Shown here: one piece after another, positions 28,203 through 28,717 of the stretch
Layout of the letters: every line of letters starts with the position of its first letter
Position numbering within the stretch: position 1 is the stretch's first letter
From: Escherichia phage pEC-M719-6WT.2
Length of the DNA: 64,000 nucleotides
Sequence record: OQ845958.1
Direction: 5' to 3' (one strand)
Made by a program: the position numbers and the translations under genes
Notes under the pieces: model-generated
What the model was told of the DNA's origin: nothing
Databases searched by the model: none
Seen by the model: only the letters and a program-made list of their open reading frames with translations

Positions 28203-28224
28203 ATACCCCTATATAAGGGGGTAT
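28203..28224 (+). promoter_or_regulatory. hairpin sequestering the lysozyme ribosome-binding site
   Basis: ATACCCC-tatataag-GGGGTAT; 3' arm is the SD (AAGGGGG) 2 nt before e ATG. Confidence 0.5.
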
Positions 28225-28225
28225 T

Positions 28226-28717
28226 ATGAATATATTCGAAATGTTACGCATAGATGAAGGTTGTAAGTTGGATTTGTATAAAGATACTGAAGGCTATTGG
28301 ACCATTGGTATCGGGCAACTGATAACTAAGAACCCATCAAAAGATGTTGCTCGTGCCGAGCTCGACAAGCTCATGGGTCGCGTCTGTAATGGTCGCATAA
28401 CCCAGCACGAAGCTGAAACATTGTTTAACCGTTCGGTCGAAAAAGCTAAAGCCGGAATCTTGAGACATCCTGTCTTAAAACCTGTTTATGATGTACTTGA
28501 TGAAGTTCGTCGTTGTGCACTCATTAATATGGTATTCCAAATGGGTGTTGCTGGTGTTGCTGGTTTTCCTAAGGGTATGCGATTGCTGAAGGCTAAATCA
28601 TGGGAAGCGGCTGCTAAGGAACTGGCGGACTCAAGATGGTATAAAGTCCAGACTCCGAACCGAGCCAAACGAGTTATAGAAACGTTCCGCACCGGAACTT
28701 TTGACGCATACAAATAA
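28226..28717 (+). CDS. e: endolysin (T4 lysozyme e)
   Basis: [12 protein letters not shown]...[17 protein letters not shown]...[18 protein letters not shown] closely matches recalled T4 lysozyme. Confidence 0.95.

Follow-up and report, generated by a model that had tools for sequence, protein, structure and literature searches.

The lysozyme gene e of Escherichia phage pEC-M719-6WT.2 is directly preceded by an inverted repeat, which a sequence-only reading had taken for a hairpin occluding the ribosome-binding site (RBS), as in gene e of phage T4. The question raised by this locus is whether the leader works as a switch of the T4 kind, and from which promoter the late transcripts of e would start. 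The analysis covered one window, the whole stretch of 64,000 nucleotides of sequence record OQ845958.1, and all positions are given in its numbering. The leader is very probably the orthologue of the T4 gene e leader, a transcript-length-dependent translational switch in a VR7/SP18-type phage, with a single candidate late promoter overlapping the 5′ arm of the hairpin.

The surroundings of the e leader are 92–97% identical to those of Escherichia, Shigella and Yersinia phages of the VR7/SP18/VR26 type. Judged by this similarity, the window belongs to a T4-like phage of the VR7/SP18 type (Gaprivervirus); VR7 itself is classified in Tevenvirinae, genus Gaprivervirus. The genes that concern the leader are as follows.

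27741–28199, plus strand: nudE (e.1), Nudix hydrolase gene, upstream of and co-directional with e (PHROG nudix hydrolase, E = 7.5e-73).
28226–28717, plus strand: gene e, T4-type lysozyme (endolysin), 163 aa, ATG at 28226 (open reading frame; PHROG endolysin, E = 8.1e-27).
53129–53671, plus strand: homologue of gene 55, encoding the late sigma factor gp55 (tblastn with T4 gp55: 80% identity, 182/185 aa, E = 9e-97).

A homologue of e is present in 1,834 phage records. Along its entire length the product of the window's gene e has about 70% identity to T4 e, and Glu11, Asp20 and Thr26 are all present in the translation, as read directly from the open reading frame (ORF). In the annotation of VR7 the ORF orthologous to the upstream gene is nudE, located directly upstream of e, and this adjacency is common to T4, VR7 and the window. 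The case for orthology is made by the nudE–e order, the lysozyme identity and the alignment of the leaders described below. The gp55 homologue, by its similarity the reader of TATAAATA-type promoters, is the trans-acting part of the putative e switch. Downstream of e, a gene for an 89-aa internal virion protein is located between e and denV (28726–28995, plus strand; PHROG 8765, E = 5e-37). VR7 does not possess this gene and has denV directly after e; Dhakavirus phage UP19 encodes an internal virion protein at the equivalent spot after e. This amounts to minor mosaicism within the group.

The sequence of the nudE–e junction (28196–28228) is ATAATAAATACCCCTATATAAGGGGGTATTATG. The repeat search found here an inverted repeat of 8 nt, AATACCCC (28202–28209) and GGGGTATT (28218–28225), 100% complementary and with 8 nt between the copies. 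Folding with RNAfold added the pair U28210·G28217, giving a stem of nine pairs, eight Watson-Crick and one G·U, with an energy of −12.1 kcal/mol.

28202–28210, plus strand: 5′ arm of the e hairpin, AAUACCCCU (repeat search and RNAfold).
28211–28216, plus strand: hairpin loop AUAUAA, 6 nt (fold).
28217–28225, plus strand: 3′ arm of the e hairpin, GGGGGUAUU, made up of the Shine-Dalgarno (SD) core GGGGG (28217–28221) and the 4-nt spacer UAUU (repeat search and RNAfold).

The SD sequence AAGGGGGU (28215–28222) falls in the paired region and is contained in the 3′ arm. Both the hairpin immediately upstream of e and the identity of its 3′ arm with the SD had been recognised in the sequence-only reading, and the calculated folding energy bears the structure out. 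The extent of the stem had been understated: the proposed 7-bp stem was said to end 2 nt before the ATG, and it actually ends at 28224, one base (T28225) before it, while the full stem abuts the start codon.

When the 24-nt hairpin was shuffled alone, a z-score of −1.78 was obtained, which is uninformative because the runs of C and G survive the shuffling. The 56-nt context folds with −18.2 kcal/mol (z = −3.56), a value equalled by 1 of 200 shuffles. By energy alone the e hairpin is not rare, since the plus strand of the 64 kb contains 40 clusters of 26-nt windows that reach −12 kcal/mol or lower; its non-randomness comes from its position. A cmscan search of 27600–28800 against Rfam with E up to 10 gave chance-level matches only, none of them on the hairpin, and no family at gathering score. 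The minimum free energy structure of the 56-nt context contained in addition an outer 9-bp helix around the AUG, formed on the plus strand by UUUCGGAUA (28190–28198) and UAUUCGAAA (28233–28241) and joining the 3′ end of nudE to codons 3–6 of e. In a control where the flanks were swapped for natural sequence from elsewhere in the window, as much stabilisation came from 34% of random flank pairs, and from 11% with the true 3′ flank kept. This helix has no T4 equivalent, and the members of the genus are identical over it, hence give no usable covariation, so that it was set aside as unsupported.

The accessibility of the SD was expressed as the opening energy, the energy needed to free positions −14 to −5 from pairing, before each of the 103 putative gene starts in the window. 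The start of e ranks second of the 103, with 14.3 kcal/mol against a median of 3.3 kcal/mol. The same calculation for RNAs of the early and late types, in the window and in T4, gave the following values.

Window, early-type RNA starting 60 or 200 nt upstream: 14.3 kcal/mol.
Window, late-type RNA starting at 28211: 1.7 kcal/mol.
T4, early-type RNA starting 60 or 200 nt upstream: 13.6–14.6 kcal/mol.
T4, late-type RNA starting at the predicted +1: 4.3 kcal/mol.

In these folding models, the SD is base-paired in a stable stem-loop, and opening it costs as much as opening the proven structure of T4.

The experimental details on T4 are taken from a 2010 review (PMC3014915), the primary paper being McPheeters et al. 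1986 (NAR 14:5813). As stated there, early transcripts of T4 reach into e and form an inhibitory structure, which lowers lysozyme synthesis about 100-fold (citing McPheeters 1986). Late promoters located just upstream of the RBS, two of which are used by T4, give RNAs without the 5′ strand, and these are well translated (PMC3014915). For close T4-type phages, the same review presents comparable predicted leaders, in which the 5′-strand region includes a late promoter (Uzan and Miller 2010, Fig. 5A). The VR7/SP18 group was not found in the text of that review, and among the papers searched none describes the hairpin for Gaprivervirus.

The leaders of T4 (TATAAATAccttcTATAAATActtaggaggtattATG) and of the window (AATAAATAcccctatataagggggtattATG) can be aligned. 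They are alike in their place at the nudE–e junction before e, in the stem base AAUACC.../...GGUAUU, in the SD-to-AUG spacing (GGAGG-UAUU-AUG in T4), in a late promoter overlapping the 5′ arm, and in the opening energies of the SD given above. The differences are of several kinds. In the T4 leader, a first consensus late promoter overlaps the 5′ arm and a second is situated in the loop, whereas the window has one, T4's loop copy being lost; among the leaders examined, the second TATAAATA is restricted to those of T4-type (Tequatrovirus) phages. The folded loop comprises 6 nt in the window and 8 nt in T4, with a 6-nt alignment gap in the window's loop, and the promoter overlapping the 5′ arm is AATAAATA in the window and TATAAATA in T4. 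The SD is GGGGG in the window and GGAGG in T4, the window's 5′ arm showing the corresponding U-to-C change, and the window's leader has no GGAG motif. The T4 fold extends over the AUG, whereas the stem in the window stops short of it. Finally, the function of the T4 e leader is experimentally proven, whereas that of the window's leader is predicted.

A late promoter of the type read by gp55 is predicted at the base of the hairpin.

28198–28205, plus strand: AATAAATA, candidate gp55-type late promoter (−13 to −6), with one mismatch to TATAAATA, overlapping the first 4 nt of the 5′ arm.

This is the only site near e within one mismatch of TATAAATA, and no second late promoter of the kind found in T4 was detected in the window's leader at that threshold. 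The motif overlaps the stop codon of nudE (TAA, 28197–28199). It aligns with the upstream e late promoter of T4, and ATAAATAC is nearly invariant among 20 aligned leaders. The late-promoter consensus spans −13 to −6, with A or T at −13 in most T4-like phages (PMC1524935). By this rule, a promoter at 28198–28205 would start transcription near A28211, the first base of the loop, 6 nt past the last base of the motif, and 0 nt of the 5′ arm would be left in the RNA. The late start of e is thereby predicted to lie inside the hairpin. Sites within one mismatch of TATAAATA are not enriched in the window (122 against 132 expected), and since the motif occurs at chance frequency, the promoter call rests on orthologous position and conservation and not on the motif alone. 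With these points taken together, AATAAATA is likely the credible late promoter of e. The same variant is also present before gene 49, in both the window and T4, and before gene 53 in the window.

The conservation of the leader was studied by a protein-guided scan of viral contigs, which gave 71 loci; 32 T4-like loci, together with T4 and the window, yielded 21 distinct leaders. In every one of these 21 leaders of the Tevenvirinae type, the SD is located in the 3′ arm of a hairpin, with 7–14 bp and energies from −7 to −18 kcal/mol. The design thus recovered is the same as that of the other T4-type e leaders (Uzan and Miller 2010, Fig. 5A). Wherever the NATAAATA motif could be located automatically, the predicted late RNA retains 0–4 nt of the 5′ arm. 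The stem is AAUACCUCCU/AGGAGGUAUU, of the AAUACC.../...GGUAUU type, in RB69-like/Mosigvirus-type and Dhakavirus (UP19) leaders, CUCCUAUC/GAUAGGAG in contigs of the Klebsiella/Enterobacter-phage type and ACUCCUAUAU/GUAUAGGAGU in other leaders, being extended on different sides of the SD core lineage by lineage. Loops and upstream flanks vary freely, and the complement of the SD (CCUCC, CCCC or CUCC), which lies outside the promoter motif, is kept in 21 leaders of 21. When viral contigs were scanned by pattern for more variants, a single new lysozyme leader turned up (L102; stem of 12 bp, −16.6 kcal/mol), the remainder being unrelated chance matches.

A covariance model was built from eight leaders, and 29 correct-strand leaders were aligned to it; the alignment also took in six minus-strand palindromic matches (two distinct rows), which slightly contaminate the counts. 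In this structure-aware alignment, 87% of the cells are paired, compared with 31–59% when the partner is slid by 1–3 columns. Double changes occur in only 2 of 11 pairs and most paired columns are invariant, the covariation being modest, as expected with a 3′ arm that doubles as the SD and a 5′ arm whose base doubles as the promoter. The one clean compensatory change, U-A to C-G in columns 17/36, belongs to the lineage of the window, where the SD is GGGGG instead of GGAGG and the 5′ arm has CCCC instead of CCUC or CCUU. Plain MAFFT alignment of 20 leaders followed by RNAalifold recovered five pairs only and zero covariation, the cause being a one-base offset between the stems of two lineages.

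Three other explanations of the locus have to be weighed. The same switch could operate from the loop motif TATATAAG (28210–28217), with late starts within the 3′ arm, and this is where the sequence-only reading had placed the late promoter, describing the motif as a two-mismatch variant of TATAAATA. The motif occupies the place where T4 carries the TATAAATA of its loop, the second of its late promoters for e, and both promoters are reported to be in use in T4 (PMC3014915). However, TATATAAG carries three mismatches to TATAAATA (positions 5, 7 and 8), as do all other registers of the loop, which is shorter by 6 nt than that of T4, and the second TATAAATA is missing from all leaders that are not of the T4 type. 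Transcription from TATATAAG would begin near 28223, beyond the SD and with 3 nt left to the AUG, removing the SD and leaving an essentially leaderless mRNA; a late promoter whose start falls past the SD is implausible. A better site, AATAAATA, which that reading had missed, is available 12 nt upstream, with its one mismatch at the tolerated −13. Use of the loop motif is therefore extremely improbable. What stands of the T4-type interpretation is the SD-occluding hairpin, which agrees with orthology, energetics, conservation and the literature (PMC3014915); the placement of the promoter in the loop does not stand. Of the two findings named in that reading as speaking against it, neither applies, as the relatives keep the structure and the late start is predicted to fall within it.

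The hairpin might also be incidental, a conserved late promoter and a conserved SD lying close together and being complementary by chance, with no regulatory consequence. The scarcity of double changes and the invariance of most paired columns would suit such an explanation, as would the frequency of comparable hairpins in the window, and the divergent promoters of genes 4 and 53, described below, show that facing promoter-plus-SD modules can make palindromes. Against this, the complement of the SD is outside the promoter motif and is nevertheless kept in all 21 leaders while loop and flanks drift, the side on which the stem is extended differs by lineage, and the GGGGG change of the SD in the window's lineage is matched in the 5′ arm. 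Moreover, the T4 orthologue forms the structure experimentally and blocks translation, according to the review (PMC3014915). It is very unlikely that the complementarity is accidental. Even more doubtful is the possibility that the hairpin serves as an intrinsic terminator or 3′-end stabiliser of the nudE transcript, or as a terminator for the opposite strand. The hairpin does start 3 nt past the stop codon of nudE, and in a simple scan its minus-strand version, CCCCTTATATAGGGG followed by TATTTATTAT, looks terminator-like. However, the plus strand was not flagged, the tail UAUUAUGAAUAU containing no U-run; no minus-strand gene converges on the hairpin, all substantial ORFs nearby being on the plus strand; and the stem has four G-C pairs only. 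The relatives conserve the pairing of the SD and not a U-tract after the stem, and in T4 the early transcripts do continue into e, as stated in the same review (PMC3014915).

A switch of the T4 type also requires that early transcripts enter e from upstream, and a tentative source for them is the following site.

25165–25193, plus strand: early-promoter-like site TATACA-17-TATCAT, tentative early source for e (consensus scans).

The early-promoter-like sites upstream of e are weak matches to the consensus, and their count does not exceed that in shuffled sequence (13 found, 15 expected). Co-directional ORFs are tightly packed on the plus strand from 25223 to 28199, and the scan found no terminator-like site on the plus strand between nudE and e. 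On account of this packing and of the lack of such a site, early read-through of five co-directional ORFs into e is plausible, and nudE transcripts would extend into e. At 20522–21610 and 25165–25200 on the plus strand, early-promoter-like units occur repeatedly, with a block conserved downstream of them (…CATAATGATTCCATACTGAGTT, …TATAATTATCCCATACTGAGTT, …GTATCATTATCTTTGTCAACTAATGAGGA); by their sequence they are probably early promoters of this phage.

The switch proposed for e, as the preferred reading of the leader, would operate as follows. Early in infection, transcripts started upstream would run via nudE into e. In such a long RNA, the 5′ arm (28202–28210) would pair with the SD and the spacer (28217–28225) directly before the AUG, the 30S subunit would be excluded and no lysozyme would be made. 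After the onset of DNA replication, RNA polymerase with gp55 would start at AATAAATA (28198–28205), with +1 near A28211, and the resulting late mRNA would have a 15-nt leader beginning with the loop. Devoid of the whole 5′ arm, this mRNA would expose the SD and be translated. For the early read-through, the late start site, the translational effect and the timing, we infer the course of events from T4.

Hairpins of similar logic are known from other T4 genes. The leaders of gene 49 (endonuclease VII), soc and I-TevI likewise possess a hairpin that sequesters the SD and is relieved by a late promoter inside it (PMC3014915; PMC2988022). They are analogues and not homologues of the e leader, as the genes are different and the sequences unrelated. 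The gene 49 leader is present in the window as well (47052–47091, plus strand; endonuclease VII, 157 aa, ATG at 47089), with AATAAATA at 47052 overlapping the 5′ arm. Its hairpin has an energy of −14.9 kcal/mol (z = −3.6), and the SD lies in the 3′ arm, which reaches the AUG. The T4 gene 49 leader, a known case (PMC3014915), is nearly identical to it, AATAAATA included.

A different arrangement separates the divergent late genes 53 (ATG at 12334, minus strand) and 4 (ATG at 12383, plus strand), between which there is a 48-bp palindrome, CCTCCATTTATAAATAAGTATATCAATATTTATTAGGAGG (window 12330–12390). Here the SD of each gene pairs with the complement of the SD of the other, and the palindrome includes TATAAATA (12347, plus strand) and AATAAATA (12372, minus strand). 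Opening the two SDs costs 14.9 and 12.7 kcal/mol, which places these starts first and fourth among the 103. A matching palindromic arrangement is found in the 4/53 region of T4, and the palindrome may have arisen as a side effect of two promoter-plus-SD modules facing each other. Three further hairpins of −12.9 to −15.5 kcal/mol carry TATAAT-like hexamers in their loops (29010–29035, 51905–51930 and 21052–21077, plus strand). The denV start (29051) follows the first of them (TGATAGGGTTATAATGACCCTATCA) at a distance of 16 nt, and this hairpin coincides with a sigma-70-like TGTACA-17-TATAAT. Going by these motifs, the three may be early promoters embedded in hairpins.

Lysozyme homologues with 30–56% identity, encoded on viral contigs of 17–35 kb (L034/L043, L052/L053, L055 and L071), are also preceded by SD-pairing hairpins (about 1430–1500 per locus). 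The 5′ arms contain an ATAAATA-like motif, for example CCUCAUAAAUAU…AUAUUUAAUGAGG in L055 and UAUAAAUAUUCC…GGAAUAUUU in L071. The lysozyme genes of L034 and L052 diverge from the genes upstream of them, giving no context for read-through, and the logic of the hairpins on these distant contigs, at least on these two, may differ from that of the e switch.

In T4, the GGAG motif is the target of the RegB endoribonuclease. It is conceivable, though unlikely, that the GGGGG SD and the matched 5′ arm of the window's lineage remove this RegB target, leaving e dependent solely on the hairpin switch with its one late promoter, and that a promoter in the 5′ arm combined with an SD in the 3′ arm is a reusable module, employed at e and gene 49, in palindromic form at 4/53, and maybe at the lysozyme genes on distant contigs not obviously T4-like (L052, L053, L055 and L071).

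The mechanism itself has been known since 1986, and a 2010 review covered its conservation among T4-type phages, so the element is an ordinary one. For annotators, the analysis offers a precise position of the candidate late promoter of e (28198–28205) and a predicted late start (about 28211), and beyond annotation the importance is small. The compensatory change of the SD and the 5′ arm in this genus, a natural experiment on a small scale, favours the T4 model. It seems that the switch would let the phage, like T4, transcribe its lysozyme gene early without premature lysis of the host.
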